Assembly: GCA_041391605.1 (NCBI GenBank)
Contig: JAWKNQ010000007.1
Coordinates: 23,195 to 87,194, forward strand
From: Bacteroidia bacterium
GTDB taxonomy: Bacteria; Bacteroidota; Bacteroidia; NS11-12g; UBA955
Direction of reading: 5' to 3'
DNA: 64,000 bases
Shown here: one piece after another, positions 1,374-16,968 of the stretch
How the letters are laid out: each line of letters opens with the position of its first letter
How positions within the stretch are numbered: position 1 is the stretch's first letter
Notes under the pieces: generated by a model
Database searches by the model: none
What the model saw: the letters and a program-made list of their open reading frames with translations, nothing else
Told to the model about the DNA's origin: nothing
Translations under genes and position numbers: made by a program

Positions 1374-2105
1374 ATGGGTAATCCATTTTTTCATTTCAAA
1401 CAATTTAGTATTCTGAAGCAAGAAAAAGGCTTGAAAGTCACAACAGACTCATGCCTACTCGGTGCTTTAGCTAATTATTATTCACCAAAGAGATGTCTTG
1501 ATATTGGAACGGGAACTGGTGTTATAGCAATGATGCTGGCTCAAAAATTTCCAAATTCTAAGATTGATGCCATTGATATTGAGGATGAAATCGTGAAACA
1601 GGCTCAATTTAACATTAATCACTCAATCTTTTCGTCACAGATAGAAATCTCAAATTCTGATGTTCTGAACTTTTCTAAGGTATACTTGTACGACTTAATC
1701 ACCTGCAATCCTCCTTATTTTTCAAATCACCTAAAAAAGGCATCAAGCGAAAAGAATTCGGCCATTCATAATTTACAACTTCCTCTTGATCAATTTATTA
1801 AATCAATTAAATCCCTACTTAATCCTAACGGAGTATTTTGGGTGATTTATCCAAATTATGAATCAGAACTTTTTAAGGAGTTGGCCATTCAATCAAACTT
1901 ATTTCCAATAGAGGAATATCAAATCTTTACAAGACCTGAAAAGATGTTTCGCAAGATTACGTCTTATTCGTTACAAGCAGTTTCAAATATTCAAGATTCA
2001 ATTCTAGTCTTAAATAATGATGAAGGAGAAAAAACTGCACAGTTTACAAATCTCATGCGACCTTTTTATCTAGAAAATACCGAATTATATCAAAGCAAGG
2101 CATAG
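1374..2105 (+). CDS. tRNA1(Val) (adenine37-N6)-methyltransferase (YfiC/TrmN6-like class I SAM methyltransferase)
   Basis: FKQF..TDSCLLGA..LDIGTGTGVIAMMLAQ motif I and NPPYF motif IV; collinear with E. coli YfiC. Confidence 0.8.
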   Translation: MGNPFFHFKQFSILKQEKGLKVTTDSCLLGALANYYSPKRCLDIGTGTGVIAMMLAQKFPNSKIDAIDIEDEIVKQAQFNINHSIFSSQIEISNSDVLNFSKVYLYDLITCNPPYFSNHLKKASSEKNSAIHNLQLPLDQFIKSIKSLLNPNGVFWVIYPNYESELFKELAIQSNLFPIEEYQIFTRPEKMFRKITSYSLQAVSNIQDSILVLNNDEGEKTAQFTNLMRPFYLENTELYQSKA

Positions 2106-8070: not shown

Positions 8071-8410
8071 TGCCTATTGAATTTATCCTTCTTCAAATAA
8101 AAACCAATGACTTTATATTAATTATATTAAATAAAAGGCATAAATAATCACTGAAAACAATAAGTTCTTTCTAAATCGGAGTTCTGGGTTTAAAGCATTA
8201 AATCACCCTTTCCAAACTTTAATATCCTTGTTCTTTTTTTAGTACTTTTCCTCGAATACATCTGCAACATCACCCAATCCACCGGTAAATCCCCTATGAT
8301 TACTATTGTGTTTACTCAAACGTGATGACATATCATCGCAAGTATGACCAATTTAATAGCGGTCTTTGAGCTTAGAATATAATATGTAAAACGTACACAT
8401 ATGAAATAGA

Positions 8411-8436
8411 AAAAGCCGCAAATATTTGCGGCTTTC
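8411..8436. terminator. Bidirectional stem-loop terminator
   Basis: AAAA-GCCGCAAAT-a-ATTTGCGGC-TTT. Confidence 0.5.
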
Positions 8437-8484
8437 TAGTGGGAGCTACTGGGTTCGAACCAGTGACCCTCTGCTTGTAAGGCA
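8437..8484. repeat. attL-type direct repeat: 48-bp copy of the tRNA-Val 3' end
   Basis: tagtgggagctactgggttcgaaccagtgaccctctgcttgtaaggca is identical to 16891-16938. Confidence 0.85.
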
Positions 8485-8601: not shown

Positions 8602-8624
8602 GTATGCAAATCGTATGCAAATCG
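8602..8624 (+). promoter_or_regulatory. Tandem 11-mer GTATGCAAATC x2 (candidate integrase arm-type site / int operator)
   Basis: Exact tandem repeat directly upstream of, and overlapping, the int start; related copy at 16825-16846. Confidence 0.4.
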
Positions 8625-8638
8625 CTTATATTCGTGTT

Positions 8639-9892
8639 ATGAAAAACGAAGTATTCATTTCTATTTACCTAGATACCAGAAGAAGCAAGTCGAATGGTAA
8701 GTATCCAGTAAAACTGAGGGTATTTACTACCAATCCCAGAGTTCAGAAGCTTTACCCGACTAAATATGAGTATACCGACAAAGAATTTGATAGCATCTGG
8801 AATACTTTAAAGCCCAGAAAAGAATTTAAACATCACAGAAAACAATTACTGGATATTGAAGACAACGCAACCGAGATTTCTAAAGAAATGGAATACTTTG
8901 ATTTCACTTTATTTGAAAAAAAGTACTTTAGGAATAACGGTGAAGGCAGCGATGTATTTTATCATTACGGTAAAACCATTGAGTCTCTTATAAAATATAA
9001 ACAACTAGGGACCGCCAGTAATTATAGATTAAGTGAGAAATCTATAAAAAAATATTTGAAGGATAAGACTGGTAAGGAAATAGACAAGTTGCATTTTAAA
9101 GAAATTACAATTAATTGGTTAAAAGATTATGAATCTTATATGGTTGATGCTAACAATAGAAGTTATACTACCGTATCCATGTATCTAAGAGCCTTGCGAA
9201 CGCTATTTAATAATGCAATCAAAGATAAAGACATTGAATCAACTATTTACCCATTTGGAGACGGTAAGTATGTAATACCAGCATCGCAAAACATAAAAAA
9301 AGCATTAAGCAAAGCCGATTTGAAATCTTTGTTTCATTCAAAACCATTGACTCCAGAGCAAGAAAAGGCAAAGGACTTTTGGTTTTTTAGCTATGCTTGT
9401 AATGGTATGAATATTAAAGATATTGCTTTATTGAAATGGGGCAATATAAAAGGCGAAACGATTGAGTTCTACAGGTCCAAAACTAAAAACACTAGCAAAT
9501 CGAAATTAAAGCCTGTTCAAATAATTCTGAATGACTTTACAAAACAAACCATTGAAAAATACGGAAGTTCCAACAAAGAAAGGGACCAATTGATATTTCC
9601 ATTTATTATGAATGGGAAATCTGATTTAGAAAATTTCAATAAGATAAAGAACTTTACTAAGTTTATCAATCAAAACTTAAAGAAATTAGCCATTTCAAAT
9701 GGTATTACTGGAGATATTTCAACTTACTGGGCGAGACATAGCTTTGCAACTAATGCTGTCCGTTTGGGGGCTTCTATGGAGTTCGTTAGTGAAGCATTGA
9801 GCCATAATAATCTCAAAACAACGCAGAGTTATTTTGCAGGTTTTGAAGAAGATAGTAAGATTGAAATAATGGAAAAATTAATGGCATTTTAA
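8639..9892 (+). CDS. int: Site-specific tyrosine integrase (Bacteroidota Arm-DNA-binding type)
   Basis: YLDTRRSKSNGKYPVKLRV arm-binding N-terminus; C-terminal ARHSFAT (HxxR) and TTQSYF catalytic Tyr. ATG at 8639 preferred over 8615, which lies inside the repeat. Confidence 0.9.
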   Translation: MKNEVFISIYLDTRRSKSNGKYPVKLRVFTTNPRVQKLYPTKYEYTDKEFDSIWNTLKPRKEFKHHRKQLLDIEDNATEISKEMEYFDFTLFEKKYFRNNGEGSDVFYHYGKTIESLIKYKQLGTASNYRLSEKSIKKYLKDKTGKEIDKLHFKEITINWLKDYESYMVDANNRSYTTVSMYLRALRTLFNNAIKDKDIESTIYPFGDGKYVIPASQNIKKALSKADLKSLFHSKPLTPEQEKAKDFWFFSYACNGMNIKDIALLKWGNIKGETIEFYRSKTKNTSKSKLKPVQIILNDFTKQTIEKYGSSNKERDQLIFPFIMNGKSDLENFNKIKNFTKFINQNLKKLAISNGITGDISTYWARHSFATNAVRLGASMEFVSEALSHNNLKTTQSYFAGFEEDSKIEIMEKLMAF

Positions 9893-11038: not shown

Positions 11039-11278
11039 ATGTTTGACTATTTAGATTTTCTACCTTATTTATTGAAAGAACAATTCTATGGGAATAAATC
11101 GAAAATGATATTTTGGCTAACAAAGGTATTGAACAATGGGAAAAATGAACGTCAAATTAAGGGAAATATCAATATTTTAAATGAGAAAACAAACGAAAAA
11201 TCGGATAAATATACATCTCATTTGCATACCGAAAAAGTAATTAAAGATTATCAAATATTAAAAATTGGGGGTATTTGA
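11039..11278 (+). CDS. Hypothetical small protein (element cargo)
   Basis: 79-aa ORF; the upstream 10549-10895 region has overlapping short ORFs and in-frame stops, so it may be decayed. Confidence 0.3.
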   Translation: MFDYLDFLPYLLKEQFYGNKSKMIFWLTKVLNNGKNERQIKGNINILNEKTNEKSDKYTSHLHTEKVIKDYQILKIGGI

Positions 11279-11333: not shown

Positions 11334-11624
11334 ATGGAATTAACATTTGAACAACTCCCTTTAGCGATTAGGGACCTCACCAGCAAAGTAGAAAGAATTG
11401 AATCTTTACTACTCAATCGTTCGACCTCAGACAATGATACAGACCAGTTAATTTGTATCAAAGAAACTGCAAAGTATCTCAAATTATCGGTCCCAACCAT
11501 TTACCGAAAAGTTAGTAGAGGTGAAATACCTTATTGCAAGAAGTCCAACCGTTTATACTTTTCTAAATCTGAACTAATTGATTGGATTAAAACTAGCAGT
11601 TTCCCAGTTCTAAACAAAAAATAA
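11334..11624 (+). CDS. Helix-turn-helix DNA-binding protein, excisionase/Xis-like
   Basis: KETAKYLKLSVPTIYRKVSRGEIPYCK is a HTH_17-like motif typical of Bacteroidota mobile-element Xis/regulators. Confidence 0.65.
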   Translation: MELTFEQLPLAIRDLTSKVERIESLLLNRSTSDNDTDQLICIKETAKYLKLSVPTIYRKVSRGEIPYCKKSNRLYFSKSELIDWIKTSSFPVLNKK

Positions 11625-11628
11625 GATT

Positions 11629-12693
11629 ATGAAATTAAGTAATTTTGATAAGAACCAATTCAATAAGTTAGGACAACAAAGGACCGATAACAAGACAAAG
11701 CCTAAAAACACAAGCGACAAAACACTTAAAGGTAAGGGGTCCAAAATCAATCCAGAAAAGACAGGAAACTGGGCAAAGCGAAAGACAATATCATCAGTGT
11801 TGCTGCTCAATCTAATCACTGTAGCTGAAAAGAAAAGCAGAAATCCAAAAATAATTAAATCCTATAGGAATGCTTACTATTGTCTTAATGAGGTTGAAAC
11901 AAGCGGCAATAAGCTATTTGGCAAGTACTGTAAAAATAGGCATTGTTTGAATTGTGCTGCTATTAGAAAAGCGGAATTAATTAACAAATATTTACCTATT
12001 GTAAAGCAATGGAAGGACCCTCAATTGGTTACTCTTACAATTAAAGCTATACCCGCCAAAAACCTAAAGAAGTTTATGAAAGAAGGTATGGTGAAAGCAA
12101 TAAAAAGAATAATAGCAAGATACCGTAAAAGAAGCTACAGAAATGATTCAAAACCAATGATAGGAATAAGAGCATTAGAATGTAATTTTAACCCACAAAA
12201 ACGAACATACAATCCTCATTACCATTTGATAGTTTCAGACTTAGAAACCGCAAAAAATCTAGTAAAAGATTGGATGGCACTTTGGACCAACAAACACACT
12301 GGAATATATTCTCAAAACATAAGACCAGTAAAAGACACAACCAAAGATTTAATTGAGGTCATTAAATACGGTACTAAGATTTTTACAGACCCAACAATGA
12401 AAAAAGGCAGAAACAAAAAAACACCTCACTTTGTATACGTTTCTGCAATTGATAATATCCTAAATGCTATGATTGGTATTAGGCAATTTGAACACTTTGG
12501 GTTTAAAATCCCGAAACAAAACAAAGTAAAGTTTGACCCTGAAATAGCTGAAGAATTAAAACAATGGCAATTTGATTTAAGAAAAGCAGATTGGACTGAT
12601 ATCGAATCTGATGACAACTCTCTTTCTGGTCATTCATTAGACCCTAATACACAAAACACGTTAGAAAATAATATAAATCTGGATTTAGAATAG
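11629..12693 (+). CDS. rep: Rolling-circle replication initiator, pC194/pUB110 (Rep_1, HUH) family
   Basis: Zn-finger CKNRHCLNC; motif 2 NPHYHLIV (HUH); motif 3 VIKYGTK catalytic Tyr. Confidence 0.7.
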   Translation: MKLSNFDKNQFNKLGQQRTDNKTKPKNTSDKTLKGKGSKINPEKTGNWAKRKTISSVLLLNLITVAEKKSRNPKIIKSYRNAYYCLNEVETSGNKLFGKYCKNRHCLNCAAIRKAELINKYLPIVKQWKDPQLVTLTIKAIPAKNLKKFMKEGMVKAIKRIIARYRKRSYRNDSKPMIGIRALECNFNPQKRTYNPHYHLIVSDLETAKNLVKDWMALWTNKHTGIYSQNIRPVKDTTKDLIEVIKYGTKIFTDPTMKKGRNKKTPHFVYVSAIDNILNAMIGIRQFEHFGFKIPKQNKVKFDPEIAEELKQWQFDLRKADWTDIESDDNSLSGHSLDPNTQNTLENNINLDLE

Positions 12694-12700
12694 TTTTTCA

Positions 12701-12723
12701 GCGGAGAACAAATGATTCTCCGC
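12701..12723. other. Perfect 8-bp stem-loop GCGGAGAA-caaatga-TTCTCCGC between rep and the RM gene
   Basis: GC-rich hairpin with no 3' U-tract; candidate RCR origin hairpin or processing/attenuation structure. Confidence 0.3.
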
Positions 12724-12760
12724 CAAAATTCCTATGTTTGTGCAAAGCAAACAAAACTAA

Positions 12761-15700
12761 ATGACCGTATCTGAATACATTGAAAACCTTAATAAACGCT
12801 ATCAATTAGGCAACGCCACAGAACATACTTTCCGCGGCGACTTACAATCACTAATTGAAAGTCTGGTCCCAGAAGTAGCAGCAACCAACGAACCAAAACG
12901 AATCCAATGCGGCGCCCCCGATTATGTTATAACTAGGAAAGATATACCTATAGGATTCATTGAAGCCAAAGACGTTGGGACCGACCTAAGTAGCAAATCA
13001 CTAAAAGAACAATTCGACCGATACAAGGCATCTTTAAACAATCTTATCATTACAGATTATTTAGACTTTCATTTATATATAGACGGCGCTTTTGTCACCA
13101 GTATACGAATTGGAGAAATCTATAAAGGTGCCATCATAGCCAAACCTGAAAATTTAGAAACATTTGAAAATTTAATCAAAGATTTTTGTTTGCATATTGG
13201 GCAAACGATTAAAAGCAGTAAGCGTTTAGCTGAAATGATGGCAGCAAAAGCAAGAATGTTGTCTGATGTTATAGAAAAATCGCTAAACAGCGATGAAGAC
13301 AAAGATGCCAATAGCTCACTTAAAGACCAGATGACAGCGTTTAAGCAAATACTTATACATGACATCAAACCAAAGGAATTTGCAGACGTTTACGCTCAAA
13401 CTATTGCTTATGGTATGTTTGCGGCAAGATTACACGACCCTACATTAGAAACATTTACCAGACAAGAAGCGGCTGAACTAATACCAAAATCAAATCCGTT
13501 TCTTAGAAAATTGTTTGGTTATATCGCTGGACCCGACATCGACGACCGTATTAAATGGATAGTTGCGAGTTTAGCCGATGTTTTCAGAGCTTCAGATGTA
13601 GCAGCCATCTTAAAGAACTTTGGAAAATCAACACAAACCCAAGACCCTATTATTCATTTTTATGAAACCTTTCTAAGCGAATACGACCCCAAATTAAGAA
13701 AAGCCAGAGGGGTTTGGTATACGCCAGAGCCAGTAGTTAATTTTATAGTTCGTGCAGTAGATGACATATTAAAGACTGAATTTGATTTGCCACAGGGTTT
13801 AGCAGACACAAGTAAAACAAAAATTAAAGTAAATGTCCAAGGCAAGAAAGTAGAACAAGAAGTTCACCGAGTACAGATATTGGACCCAGCAACGGGAACG
13901 GGCACTTTCTTAGCAGAAGTGATAAAACAAATTCATGCGAAATTTGAAGGTCAAAAAGGCATTTGGTCCAACTATGTAGAAAATCAATTGTTACCACGTT
14001 TAAATGGTTTTGAGTTACTGATGGCATCTTATGCAATGGCTCATTTAAAATTAGATTTACTATTGACTGAAACAGGCTATAAACCAACTCGGAACCAACG
14101 ATTCAAAGTATATCTTACAAACAGCTTAGAAGAACACCATCCCGAGACAGGTACTTTATTTGCCAATTGGTTAAGCAGCGAAGCCAATGAAGCGAATCAA
14201 ATCAAAAGAGATACTCCTGTAATGTGTGTAATTGGGAATCCTCCATATGCTGTAAGTAGCAATAATAAAAGTATTGATACGGATGGACATAAAACTTGGA
14301 TTGGACGTTTAATTGATGATTACAAAAAAAACCTAAATGAAAGAAAAATTAACTTAGATGACGATTATATAAAATTCATTCGCTACGGTCAGTATTTTAT
14401 AGACAAGAATGGGAGTGGTGTTTTGGCTTATATATCAAATAATAGTTTCATAGATGGAATTACTCACAGGCAAATGAGAAAAAGTCTATTAGAATGTTTT
14501 AACAAGATTTACATTCTGGATTTACATGGGAGTTCTAAAAAGAATGAAGTTTCAATTAGTGGCGGTAAAGACGAAAATGTTTTTGATATTCAGCAGGGTG
14601 TGAGTATTAATATATTTATTAAATATAACCAGAAAAAACAAAGTAAATCAACCGAAGTGCTACATTCAGATATATTTGGTTTGCGAAAGGAAAAGTATTT
14701 AACTCTTGCCTCAAATTCTTTAAAAACAATCAAATGGGATAAATTAACATTGAAGCCGCCATATCATTTTTTTGTACCAAAGGATTACAATTCAATTAAC
14801 GAATATAACAAAGGTTTTCAGTTTACAGACTTATTTGTAAATTATAATTCTGGTATCCAAACTAAGAATGATAGTTTATCAATACAATTTCATCAAAATC
14901 AAATTGAAGCTGTGGTAAATGATTTCAAAACTGAAGGTGTAAATGAATTGAAAATCAAATATAATTTAAAAGATACAAGTGGATGGACAGTATTAAATGC
15001 TAAAAATGACTTGTTGAAAAATGAAGGCAATTTTTATAAAATATATTATAGACCCTTTGATTTGAGATATATTTATATGACAAATAAGTCAGGCGGATTT
15101 GTAGGCAGACCCAGAATGGATACTATGAGGCACTTTTTGAATGGAGATAATTATGGATTGATAACCGTGAGGCAACAAAGTACATTTGATTTTCAACATA
15201 TACTTATCTCAAATACAATTATGGAAAGTGGTGCAATTTCCCTTCAAACTAAAGAATGGGGCTATATTTTCCCCTTATACTTATACCCTGTTTCAAATAG
15301 CCAATTAAAAATAAATCAAACTGAAAAAAGGATTCCGAATTTGAACATAGAAATTATAAAATTAATTTCTGATAAATTAGGGTTTATATTTTCAAATGAA
15401 AAGGAAATTAGCAAAAATTCTTTTGCCCCTATTGACATATTAGATTACATCTATGCGGTATTATATTCACCAAAGTATCGAGAGAAATACAAAGAATATT
15501 TAAAAATAGATTTCCCCCGTGTACCTTATCCAAAGGACCAGAAAACATTTTGGGCATTGGTTAAACTAGGCAGTGAGTTAAGGCAAATACATTTATTAGA
15601 TAGCCCTGTCATTGAAAAGTATATTACCCAATACCCTATCGACGGCGATAACATTGTTGTAAAACCGATTTTCAAAGATGGCAAGGTATATATAAACGAA

Positions 15701-15901
15701 ACGCAGTATTTTGAAGCGGTCCCTGAGATAGCATGGAATTTTTACATAGGTGGTTACCAACCTGCCCAGAAATGGCTAAAGGACCGCAAAGACAGGGTTT
15801 TAGATTTTGATGACATTCTGCACTATCAGAAGATAATTGTAGCTTTGTTTGAAACAGATAGGATTATGAAGAAAATAAATCAGTTAATTTATAAAGATTA
15901 A
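12761..15901 (+). CDS. Type IIG (MmeI-like) restriction-modification enzyme: N-terminal PD-ExK nuclease, gamma-class N6-adenine methyltransferase, C-terminal TRD
   Basis: GAPDYVITRKD...IGFIEAKD (PD...EAK); LDPATGTGTFL (motif I); VIGNPPYA (motif IV); 1046 aa with no helicase or separate S subunit. Confidence 0.75.
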   Translation: MTVSEYIENLNKRYQLGNATEHTFRGDLQSLIESLVPEVAATNEPKRIQCGAPDYVITRKDIPIGFIEAKDVGTDLSSKSLKEQFDRYKASLNNLIITDYLDFHLYIDGAFVTSIRIGEIYKGAIIAKPENLETFENLIKDFCLHIGQTIKSSKRLAEMMAAKARMLSDVIEKSLNSDEDKDANSSLKDQMTAFKQILIHDIKPKEFADVYAQTIAYGMFAARLHDPTLETFTRQEAAELIPKSNPFLRKLFGYIAGPDIDDRIKWIVASLADVFRASDVAAILKNFGKSTQTQDPIIHFYETFLSEYDPKLRKARGVWYTPEPVVNFIVRAVDDILKTEFDLPQGLADTSKTKIKVNVQGKKVEQEVHRVQILDPATGTGTFLAEVIKQIHAKFEGQKGIWSNYVENQLLPRLNGFELLMASYAMAHLKLDLLLTETGYKPTRNQRFKVYLTNSLEEHHPETGTLFANWLSSEANEANQIKRDTPVMCVIGNPPYAVSSNNKSIDTDGHKTWIGRLIDDYKKNLNERKINLDDDYIKFIRYGQYFIDKNGSGVLAYISNNSFIDGITHRQMRKSLLECFNKIYILDLHGSSKKNEVSISGGKDENVFDIQQGVSINIFIKYNQKKQSKSTEVLHSDIFGLRKEKYLTLASNSLKTIKWDKLTLKPPYHFFVPKDYNSINEYNKGFQFTDLFVNYNSGIQTKNDSLSIQFHQNQIEAVVNDFKTEGVNELKIKYNLKDTSGWTVLNAKNDLLKNEGNFYKIYYRPFDLRYIYMTNKSGGFVGRPRMDTMRHFLNGDNYGLITVRQQSTFDFQHILISNTIMESGAISLQTKEWGYIFPLYLYPVSNSQLKINQTEKRIPNLNIEIIKLISDKLGFIFSNEKEISKNSFAPIDILDYIYAVLYSPKYREKYKEYLKIDFPRVPYPKDQKTFWALVKLGSELRQIHLLDSPVIEKYITQYPIDGDNIVVKPIFKDGKVYINETQYFEAVPEIAWNFYIGGYQPAQKWLKDRKDRVLDFDDILHYQKIIVALFETDRIMKKINQLIYKD

Positions 15902-16638
15902 ATTAAAGTTTGTTGATATACTTTTGTGAAGTATTTACTATAGTCGATTACTGGATATGGCAAATTTGGCTTTCCAAGCTTGTGTTTAATCAAATAAAAA
16001 AATAAATCTATCCTTACACTAGCAACAAATCCTTTATCCATATAATCTTCTATTAATACTCCTATTAATTTATATCTCGTTAATTTCCTTTTGTGAAAAT
16101 TAGTATTCCAGTCTGGTACAAACCAAAGTCCACTGCCACTCATTCCTGTTAATGAACTTAAATAGGTTTCTTTTACACCTCCAAATTTAACGCCCTTTTT
16201 CGAAATCCTTATTAAAAGATGAGACTCGTAATTAAACCCCCATTTATTATAATATTTTGGGTGAAAAGGAAAAGTCAATAAACTTTGTGGCTTGACAAGC
16301 TTTTTCTTTAATCCCTTTTTTAAGTTTGTTAAGGGAAAACCAGAAATAATATAGTCAGGTTTATTCATTAATTGATGATTTACCCACGTTGCAGATGGGA
16401 TTAATGCCTTCTGTTTGTTAATTAATAAAAACTGCTTAATTTCATTTGACAACTTCAATACAGAAACATCAATCTTTCCATTATTAGATGAAGAATCTAA
16501 GTAAGTGGTGCATAATGTTCCTTTTAGGTTAATATTCGTAAATCCAGTTAAATTTAACACCAACCCCTTTTTAAAGTTTTCTATTGAAAGTAAGTGACCT
16601 GCGGTCAACAAATAATAATCACCATAGATATAAAACAA
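15898..16638 (-). CDS. Trypsin-fold (S1-like) serine protease, cytoplasmic; 5' end disrupted or non-canonical (open frame to ~16795; ATG at 16751 is out of frame)
   Basis: LLTAGHLL (His), DVSVLKL (Asp) and GMSGSGLW (Ser) with chymotrypsin-like spacing. Its stop overlaps the RM stop by 4 bp (convergent). The track start is TTG. Confidence 0.55.
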   Translation of the reverse strand: MFYIYGDYYLLTAGHLLSIENFKKGLVLNLTGFTNINLKGTLCTTYLDSSSNNGKIDVSVLKLSNEIKQFLLINKQKALIPSATWVNHQLMNKPDYIISGFPLTNLKKGLKKKLVKPQSLLTFPFHPKYYNKWGFNYESHLLIRISKKGVKFGGVKETYLSSLTGMSGSGLWFVPDWNTNFHKRKLTRYKLIGVLIEDYMDKGFVASVRIDLFFYLIKHKLGKPNLPYPVIDYSKYFTKVYQQTLI

Positions 16639-16824
16639 TAAAGAGCACCCTAAAGGCTCTAATTTACTATCATCATTTTTTATAAATATGACGTATGTAA
16701 AATCAATTGCATCCTTAATTATATTATGAAACTTGTTTCTATTAATTTCATACGTTTTTTGGTAATAATCCTTTAAATTGTTTAATCTTTTATTTTACTG
16801 CTTTTTACTTTCATTATTAAAATT

Positions 16825-16846
16825 ATATGCAAATTGTATGCAAATG
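16825..16846 (+). promoter_or_regulatory. Tandem TATGCAAAT-type repeats near attR (candidate arm-type integrase site)
   Basis: aTATGCAAATtGTATGCAAATg in the same orientation as the copy at 8602-8624. Confidence 0.4.
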
Positions 16847-16886
16847 AAAAAAGGGTTTCAATCTGAATCGACCGAAACCCTTTTGT
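16847..16886. terminator. Stem-loop terminator
   Basis: AAAAAA-GGGTTTC-(14 nt)-GAAACCC-TTTTGTT. Confidence 0.5.
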
Positions 16887-16890
16887 TATC

Positions 16891-16938
16891 TAGTGGGAGC
16901 TACTGGGTTCGAACCAGTGACCCTCTGCTTGTAAGGCA
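16891..16938. repeat. attR-type direct repeat (overlaps the tRNA-Val 3' half)
   Basis: Identical to 8437-8484. Confidence 0.85.
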
Positions 16939-16968
16939 GATGCTCTGAACCAGCTGAGCTAAGCTCCC
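16894..16968 (-). tRNA. tRNA-Val (anticodon TAC)
   Basis: 75-nt cloverleaf hand-folded: acceptor GGGAGCT/AGCTCCC, D-stem GCTC/GAGC, anticodon loop CTTACAA, T-loop TTCGAAC, discriminator A. Confidence 0.9.

Follow-up and report, generated by a model that had tools for sequence, protein, structure and literature searches.

A putative DrdV-like single-chain Type IIG/IIL restriction-modification enzyme carried by a tRNA-Val island of a Bacteroidia bacterium

The DNA analyzed here, referred to as the window, comprises 64,000 nucleotides of contig JAWKNQ010000007.1 of the Bacteroidia bacterium assembly GCA_041391605.1. On its forward strand, positions 12761-15901 form a single unbroken open reading frame (ORF) of 1046 codons plus stop, which encodes a restriction-modification (RM) protein. 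The RM gene is cargo of an integrated island of 8454 bp at a tRNA-Val gene, and a spacer of 67 nt separates it from the replication initiator gene (rep) upstream. The protein is very probably a complete single-chain Type IIG/IIL RM enzyme of the DrdV lineage that acts in a DrdV-like manner. Four regions were distinguished along the gene.

12761-13195, forward strand: PD-(D/E)xK endonuclease domain, residues 1-145 (fold match to the DrdV endonuclease, conserved residues)
13196-13630, forward strand: all-helical connector, residues 146-290 (predicted model, helices 153-285)
13631-14710, forward strand: gamma-class N6-adenine methyltransferase (MTase), residues 291-650 (Pfam, PDB alignments, motifs I and IV)
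14711-15901, forward strand: target-recognition domain (TRD) of the Type ISP/DrdV kind, residues 651-1046 plus stop (Pfam Type_ISP_C)

The motif strings quoted in the original prediction, which had been made from the letters alone (APDYVI...IGFIEAKD, LDPATGTGTFL and NPPYA), were all located in the translation. The nuclease motif string CGAPDYVITRKDIPIGFIEAKD holds D54, E68 and K70, motif I of the MTase (LDPATGTGTFL) has DPATGTG at residue 375 (D375), and motif IV (GNPPYA) has NPPY at N493-Y496. Motif I precedes motif IV and the TRD is C-terminal within one polypeptide, in agreement with the gamma class that had been assigned. Neither a Walker A motif nor a DExx box was found by a regular-expression scan of the RM protein, and no helicase was among its Pfam matches.

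The C-terminal region was matched by Pfam Type_ISP_C ("Type ISP C-terminal specificity domain") over residues 690-1037 with an expect value (E) of 7.4e-77 and 259 bits. Moderate matches to N6_Mtase, Eco57I and MmeI_Mtase covered residues ~294-590, and HSDR_N matched the N-terminus weakly. MmeI_N, MmeI_hel, MmeI_TRD and MmeI_C gave no Pfam match at E<=0.1. A C-terminal recognition module of ~500 amino acids had been predicted; a recognition region is present, but its size is ~400 amino acids (651-1046). The full-length Type IIG model of PADLOC, PDLC03610, scored 1160.8 bits against the RM protein. PADLOC MTase_I matched weakly (1e-6), no model of PglX or of another component of bacteriophage exclusion (BREX) systems was among the PADLOC matches, and NCBIfam had no specific model for the protein.

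In a single-sequence search of the PDB, the RM protein matched DrdV (7LO5) with an E of 1.3e-33, LlaBIII with 2.8e-31 and LlaGI with 3e-29. When a profile of 24 homologues was used, the values were 1.2e-44, 1.6e-44 and 6.5e-40, respectively. In all three proteins these sequence matches aligned over the MTase and the TRD only. The aligned MTase started at residue 288 of the RM protein, at residue 836 of LlaBIII and at residue 672 of LlaGI, and the alignments with the latter two begin after their nuclease and helicase-like domains. The Type I MTase 3khk gave a weak local match (0.0033). MmeI and BpuSI were not matched at E<=1 in the PDB sequence searches, and neither appeared among the 50 matches that both fold searches (Foldseek) listed.

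For the fold searches, a full-length AlphaFold model was made from 24 close homologues and used for local Foldseek matches only. It matched full-length DrdV with an E of 8e-22 and the DrdV endonuclease chain 7lvv_C with a template modeling (TM) score of 0.65. The second model (me55ea768bd11) covered residues 1-295 and was made from 49 sequences; its predicted local distance difference test (pLDDT) score was 83.8 and its predicted TM (pTM) score 0.76. It shows an alpha/beta domain (residues 1-145) followed by helices (residues 153-285). DrdV provided the sole significant Foldseek matches of this model. Nuclease plus connector aligned with DrdV over ~313 columns at E 4e-6 to 4e-5 with a probability of 1.0, and nuclease-only DrdV chains gave TM scores of 0.62-0.66, also with a probability of 1.0. 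The weak tail of the search consisted mostly of other PD-(D/E)xK nucleases, among them VRR_NUC, an HsdR fragment, McrC and EcoRV.

The active site of DrdV consists of E25, D64, E79, K81 and K94 (10.1101/2021.01.06.425610). In the RM protein, E21, D54, E68, K70 and K82 occur in the DrdV catalytic order and with near-equal spacing. The first four are invariant in both the 24- and the 49-sequence alignment, and K82 is invariant in the former and nearly invariant in the latter. From their order, their spacing and the fold match, these five are proposed as the catalytic residues. An N-terminal PD-(D/E)xK nuclease, as originally predicted, is supported by the invariance of D54, E68 and K70 and by the DrdV endonuclease fold. 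The best homologues were not PglX or HsdM proteins without an aligned nuclease, the outcome named in advance as speaking against a Type IIG enzyme; the PADLOC Type IIG model matched at full length and the DrdV endonuclease superposed.

DrdV is a Type IIL enzyme of 1029 residues in which a nuclease at the N-terminus is joined through a helical connector to an MTase (residues 295-635) and a TRD (residues 636-1029). Within its site, CATGNAC, a single adenine is methylated, and the DNA is cut 10/8 bp downstream; methylation is much slower than cutting, and several site-bound molecules are required for cleavage (10.1101/2021.01.06.425610). The RM protein resembles this enzyme from Deinococcus wulumuqiensis (PDB 7LO5/7LVV) in length (1046 versus 1029 amino acids), in domain order and bounds (MTase from ~291-295, TRD from ~636-651), in the lack of an ATPase and in having same-order counterparts of all five active-site residues. 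DrdV was also its best PDB sequence match and its sole significant fold match for nuclease plus connector. It differs from DrdV in that identity in the fold alignments was ~14-19% and the sequence alignment was restricted to MTase and TRD. The hosts belong to different phyla. Because the recognition cores diverge, neither CATGNAC nor the 10/8 cut can be transferred.

As far as a sequence can tell, the RM protein has every property of a single-chain Type IIG/IIL enzyme. The single-polypeptide Type IIG enzyme of the original prediction was therefore recovered, with a nuclease, an N6-methyladenine (m6A) MTase and a recognition domain and with no helicase. If the enzyme works as DrdV and other Type IIL enzymes do, its MTase and TRD would clamp a short asymmetric site and flip one adenine. 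Methylation of a single strand with S-adenosylmethionine would protect the host. Cleavage would proceed through the assembly of several site-bound molecules, with the nuclease domains swapped onto the DNA of a neighbor, and both strands would be severed a fixed, short way downstream of the site. Foreign DNA that enters with many unmodified sites would be cut fast, while solitary host sites that replication leaves hemi- or unmodified would probably be methylated instead. Since the connector and the domain bounds almost coincide with those of DrdV, the cut would be expected to follow the geometry of DrdV and not the 20/18 spacing of MmeI.

Several points weigh against this reading of the protein and its island. 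The full-length model was poor, with a pLDDT of 57.7 and values below 50 in the MTase core. The likeness to DrdV in nuclease and connector is one of fold only, at 14-18% identity, and the active sites were equated by residue order, spacing and fold match. Cleavage distance, the need for multiple sites and slow methylation are all carried over from DrdV and MmeI, and would apply here by analogy. The closest relatives with measured activity are DrdV and the Borrelia enzymes. The source is a metagenome-assembled genome (MAG), and its genes were read from the sequence only. For the island, current mobility is presumed; neither an empty site nor an excised circle was found, and an exact 83-nt pattern in which the left flank runs into an unbroken tRNA-Val had 0 matches in metagenome contigs. 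The exact RM protein and a flanking coaX-like protein had no entry in the contig index.

Part of the evidence would suit a true Type ISP enzyme, that is, an ATP-driven translocating nuclease-methylase which cuts at a distant position after a head-to-head collision. Like LlaGI and LlaBIII, the RM protein is a single polypeptide with a homologous gamma-class MTase and Type_ISP_C domain (E ~1e-40 to 1e-44; profile search 1.6e-44 for LlaBIII and 6.5e-40 for LlaGI, Type_ISP_C 259 bits), methylation of one strand is presumed for it as well, and database names ("type ISP" at NCBI, "predicted helicase" at the Joint Genome Institute [JGI]) point the same way. In Type ISP enzymes, however, a helicase-like ATPase is inserted into the Type IIL layout, and it is this motor that defines the class (Kulkarni et al., PMC4872093). 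In LlaGI and LlaBIII it drives cleavage by translocation and collision. The RM protein lacks Walker A and DExx motifs and any Pfam helicase match, and only ~145 all-helical residues separate its nuclease from its MTase. It is 1046 amino acids long, versus chains of 1406 for LlaGI and 1578 for LlaBIII, and its aligned MTase starts correspondingly early, at residue 288 rather than 672 or 836. A Type ISP enzyme is thus refuted by the architecture and hardly conceivable; since the ATPase is absent, near-site, ATP-free cutting is expected. Strict membership in the MmeI family, with a cut ~20/18 nt downstream and MmeI-type rules predicting the specificity, is also most improbable. MmeI, the Type IIL prototype, and BpuSI likewise combine a PD-ExK nuclease with a gamma-class m6A MTase and a TRD in one chain, and they share the presumed logic: one strand is methylated, the cut falls outside the site and several sites are required. 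The domain order and the Type IIL class are the same, and Pfam MmeI_Mtase matched weakly (1.1e-8, 35 bits). The four MmeI-specific Pfam domains were nevertheless unmatched at E<=0.1, the TRD belongs to another Pfam family (Type_ISP_C), and MmeI and BpuSI were missing from the PDB sequence matches (E<=1) and from the 50 listed fold matches. The label "MmeI-like" in the original prediction accordingly stands at the level of class, for the Type IIL layout and the presumed action, but by sequence and fold the protein is related to DrdV and the Type ISP enzymes.

A DrdV-like RM enzyme was also weighed against a protein that only methylates, either as an orphan or epigenetic regulator or as a PglX-like BREX component with an inactive N-terminal domain. 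Single-chain RM enzymes often lose nuclease activity, methylation by the Borrelia homologues affects transcription (10.1101/375352), and cleavage by the RM protein is a prediction. E21, D54, E68 and K70 are, however, invariant in 49 homologues and K82 nearly so, the nuclease domain is conserved like the rest of the protein (56-72%), and homologues reside in defense islands. BREX genes are missing from the island and its scanned flanks, no PglX model was among the PADLOC matches, and, unlike PglX/BrxX, the RM protein has a nuclease domain and neighbors that match no BREX model. Type I HsdM (~500 amino acids, acting with HsdS and HsdR) differs in that its MTase gave weak local matches only and no hsdS or hsdR is nearby. 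A methyltransferase without cleavage is therefore improbable. A role mainly in island stabilization rather than in phage defense, by post-segregational killing or exclusion of competing elements, is somewhat less so, but is still unlikely. RM systems are known to act as addiction modules, the RM gene lies on a small self-mobilizing island with perfect att repeats, and relatives are common on plasmids (301 records). Such a role is compatible with defense and does not exclude it, though, and post-segregational killing is not established for a multi-site, slow-methylating Type IIL enzyme; close relatives adjoin genes of cyclic-oligonucleotide-based antiphage signaling systems (CBASS), abortive infection (Abi) and other defense genes.

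NCBI lists the exact RM protein as "type ISP restriction/modification enzyme". Relatives at E<=1e-20 number at least 8000. The best 120 relatives are all 1035-1083 amino acids long, have the same Pfam set and are 67-75% identical to it; most are from Bacteroidota, such as Empedobacter, Chryseobacterium, Flavobacterium and Aequorivita. JGI often labels relatives "predicted helicase". Mechanistically the name "type ISP" is wrong: enzymes of that type depend on a helicase-like motor, for which the family members are too short. Judged by its architecture, the family is one of ATP-independent Type IIL enzymes. The label misleads in that it implies long-range translocation and not short-range cutting by multi-site assembly. 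The enzyme is an addition to a known and very abundant kind, already annotated automatically under a misleading name.

A translated search found relatives in 301 plasmid records, among them records of Acinetobacter (56% identity), Agrobacterium, Pseudomonas and Borrelia. A phage collection yielded two weak partial matches only. The Borrelia plasmid homologues are ~35% identical at 100% coverage and carry the same NCBI name. In Borrelia burgdorferi, BBE02 and BBQ67 place m6A on one strand of the asymmetric sites GNAAYG and CGRKA and act as restriction barriers (10.1101/375352). The Borrelia plasmid homologues are full-length relatives and presumably include these two enzymes. They differ from the RM protein in their distant phylum, in a divergent recognition core and in their location on linear plasmids versus a tRNA-integrated island.

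Among close relatives, motifs I and IV of the MTase and the catalytic residues of the nuclease are invariant. When column conservation was calculated over the 24 homologues in blocks of 50 residues, the values were 0.57-0.66 in residues 651-850 and 0.71-0.94 elsewhere. Residues 651-870 form a variable recognition core, and residues 871-1046 are conserved. Identity to homologues was 74-82% in the MTase and 56-72% in the nuclease domain, the latter being comparable with the rest of the protein. Across residues 651-870 it was 39-49% for most homologues and 65-67% for the nearest relatives. A conserved MTase with a variable TRD core and jaw has been published (PMC4872093), and the TRD-focused variation seen in these sequences matches that pattern. 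Given this divergence of the core, the specificity is not transferable from any relative seen. A catalytic scaffold with ~80% identity combined with 39-67% identity in the core makes the relatives a natural series for reading specificity codes, and series of this kind are used to find new Type IIS-like cutters.

The original prediction had further stated that the GC content was higher than that of the flanking DNA. This was contradicted by the base composition. The RM ORF has 33.65% GC versus a window mean of 35.3%, which places it at the 22nd percentile among equal-sized windows. The left flank has 32.8% GC and the right flank 33.9-36.3%; the N-terminal half of the ORF (37.4%) is the sole part above its immediate neighbors. 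The island as a whole has 31.7% GC and is AT-richer than the chromosome. GC at third codon positions (GC3) of the RM gene, 0.287, falls inside the range of the flanking chromosomal housekeeping genes. GC and GC3 were dropped as signs of foreign origin, as the values are not elevated. A horizontal origin receives its support from the att repeats, the integrase and the tRNA gene, but not from GC content.

Simple-sequence tracts that might support phase variation were limited, in the RM gene, to one A8 and one T7 run. In the spacer between rep and the RM gene, TATGTTTG occurs at 12733-12740, 20 nt before the RM ATG; we take it to fit the Bacteroidetes -7 promoter box TAnnTTTG, as a lead only. This spacer may contain a promoter for the RM gene itself. 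A sigma-70 promoter scan was uninformative (38 sites versus 41 expected). The same spacer contains a GC-rich hairpin, GCGGAGAA...TTCTCCGC, at 12700-12727, without a T-run.

The island is bracketed by a perfect direct repeat (50 of 50 nt) with a spacing of 8454 bp, and identity stops at the repeat ends. Together with the integrase at tRNA-Val, these repeats confirmed that the RM gene is the cargo of an element, as had been proposed. The features of the island and its borders are as follows; small ORFs of unknown function also lie between the att repeats.

8410-8437, reverse strand: hairpin just left of attL, the apparent original tRNA terminator
8435-8484, unstranded: attL, left copy of the 50-nt repeat, displaced 3' part of tRNA-Val
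8602-8622, forward strand: tandem pair of GTATGCAAAT, 11 nt apart, ~120 nt inside attL and overlapping the first integrase ATG
8615-9892, forward strand: tyrosine recombinase/integrase (Pfam Phage_int_SAM_5 7e-15, Phage_integrase 4e-12; PHROG integrase 9e-26)
11220-11229, reverse strand: further copy of GTATGCAAAT, upstream of the helix-turn-helix (HTH) gene
11334-11624, forward strand: HTH_17 (MerR/AlpA-type) DNA-binding protein, excisionase-like (Pfam HTH_17 4e-14; PHROG excisionase/regulator families)
11629-12693, forward strand: Rep_1 family rolling-circle (HUH) initiator (Pfam Rep_1 2.8e-10; motifs HYHLIV and EVIKYGTK)
15898-16794, reverse strand: divergent serine peptidase of the trypsin-like kind (second cargo ORF), convergent to the RM gene with a 4-nt overlap at the RM stop
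16825-16845, forward strand: second tandem pair, (A/G)TATGCAAAT, 11 nt apart, ~45 nt inside attR
16849-16884, reverse strand: terminator-like hairpin brought by the island, immediately following the 3' end of the reconstituted tRNA-Val
16889-16938, unstranded: attR, right copy of the 50-nt repeat, 3' part of the intact tRNA-Val
16893-16968, reverse strand: tRNA-Val (anticodon TAC), the integration target (ARAGORN; Rfam tRNA 71.8 bits)

The true start of the integrase may be the ATG at 8639. The Rep_1 protein could act in replication or mobilization of an excised circle. Exact copies of GTATGCAAAT number four in the 64-kb window, and all are within the island; they are plausible candidates for arm-type recombinase or excisionase binding sites. 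The genes flanking the island are housekeeping genes, namely, queA, a small methyltransferase gene, holA, rsfS, a biotin/lipoate ligase-family gene, coaX and lptC. No HsdS, HsdR or BREX gene was found in the island or the scanned flanks, in line with the predicted absence of an S subunit and of BREX partners. The small chromosomal methyltransferase (1374-2105, forward strand, 243 amino acids) matches MTS/Methyltransf_31 and, weakly, Eco57I and N6_N4_Mtase; it is most likely an RNA methyltransferase outside any RM system here.

The island presumably moves a one-gene defense system between genomes. The RM gene is in this respect a further case of single-gene defense on a minimal island, which is useful context but unsurprising. 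Relatives of Rep with 37-47% identity occur in MAGs of Chitinophagaceae and Cytophagales, with other genes downstream. Two islands with a related Rep_1 (37-39% identity) have the same order of a short ORF followed by rep:

L004, 3301-5283: island with related Rep_1
L006, 2078-6781: island with related Rep_1

The genes downstream of the related rep were unknown ORFs, a pair encoding an outer membrane protein and a PKD/Por-tail protein, and an AbiEii toxin gene. This suggests, on thin evidence, a variable cargo slot downstream of rep. It is conceivable, though doubtful, that the recognition sequence is one unlisted in REBASE and that the Int/HTH_17/Rep_1 backbone represents an undescribed family of small tRNA-integrating, rolling-circle-replicating Bacteroidota islands that exchange defense cargo.

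The second cargo ORF was annotated by NCBI as a hypothetical protein of 246 amino acids with a TTG start at 16638 (15898-16638). It had no Pfam, PADLOC or PHROG match of its own. An exhaustive HMMER scan returned 205 cluster representatives, most of those listed being ~260-290 amino acids long. In a 26-member alignment of this family, a His (TAGH), an Asp and the Ser of GxSGxG are invariant. The family profile matched almost only chymotrypsin-fold proteases in the PDB (best E 7e-4), and 10 of the 26 members matched Pfam Trypsin_2. The TTG start drops ~40-55 residues that are present in the family. The frame runs 52 codons further and aligns there with the family N-termini, but this extension is without ATG, GTG or TTG. 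The ORF may be degenerate (a pseudogene), misassembled (a MAG error) or noncanonically initiated. A link of the trypsin-like family to RM genes was considered and dropped, the single relative looked up being among housekeeping genes.

Six genomic contexts of RM homologues were compared. No conserved partner gene was found across these six contexts, and the enzyme therefore appears to work alone. The close homologues were not on this type of island. Their surroundings were CBASS and AbiGi genes, an AIPR/AbiE/Fic island, a resistance-gene cluster or an Acinetobacter plasmid. In two of the six contexts, a protein of ~590 amino acids with DUF7380/EMARD_N matches directly follows the RM homologue, and in a third an overlapping ORF of 464 amino acids does so. 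Both are possible accessory partners in some lineages, and both are absent from the window. The positions of these candidates are as follows.

L001, 11147-12916: possible accessory partner of an RM homologue
L011, 3320-5095: possible accessory partner of an RM homologue
L012, 11174-12568: possible accessory partner of an RM homologue

In another of these contexts (L002, 1-7662), a 75%-identical RM homologue (P0004) adjoins an apparent antibiotic-resistance cluster. This cluster comprises an adenylyltransferase, a transpeptidase-family (beta-lactamase-like) protein, an EF-G-like GTPase of the ribosomal-protection type and a major facilitator superfamily transporter.

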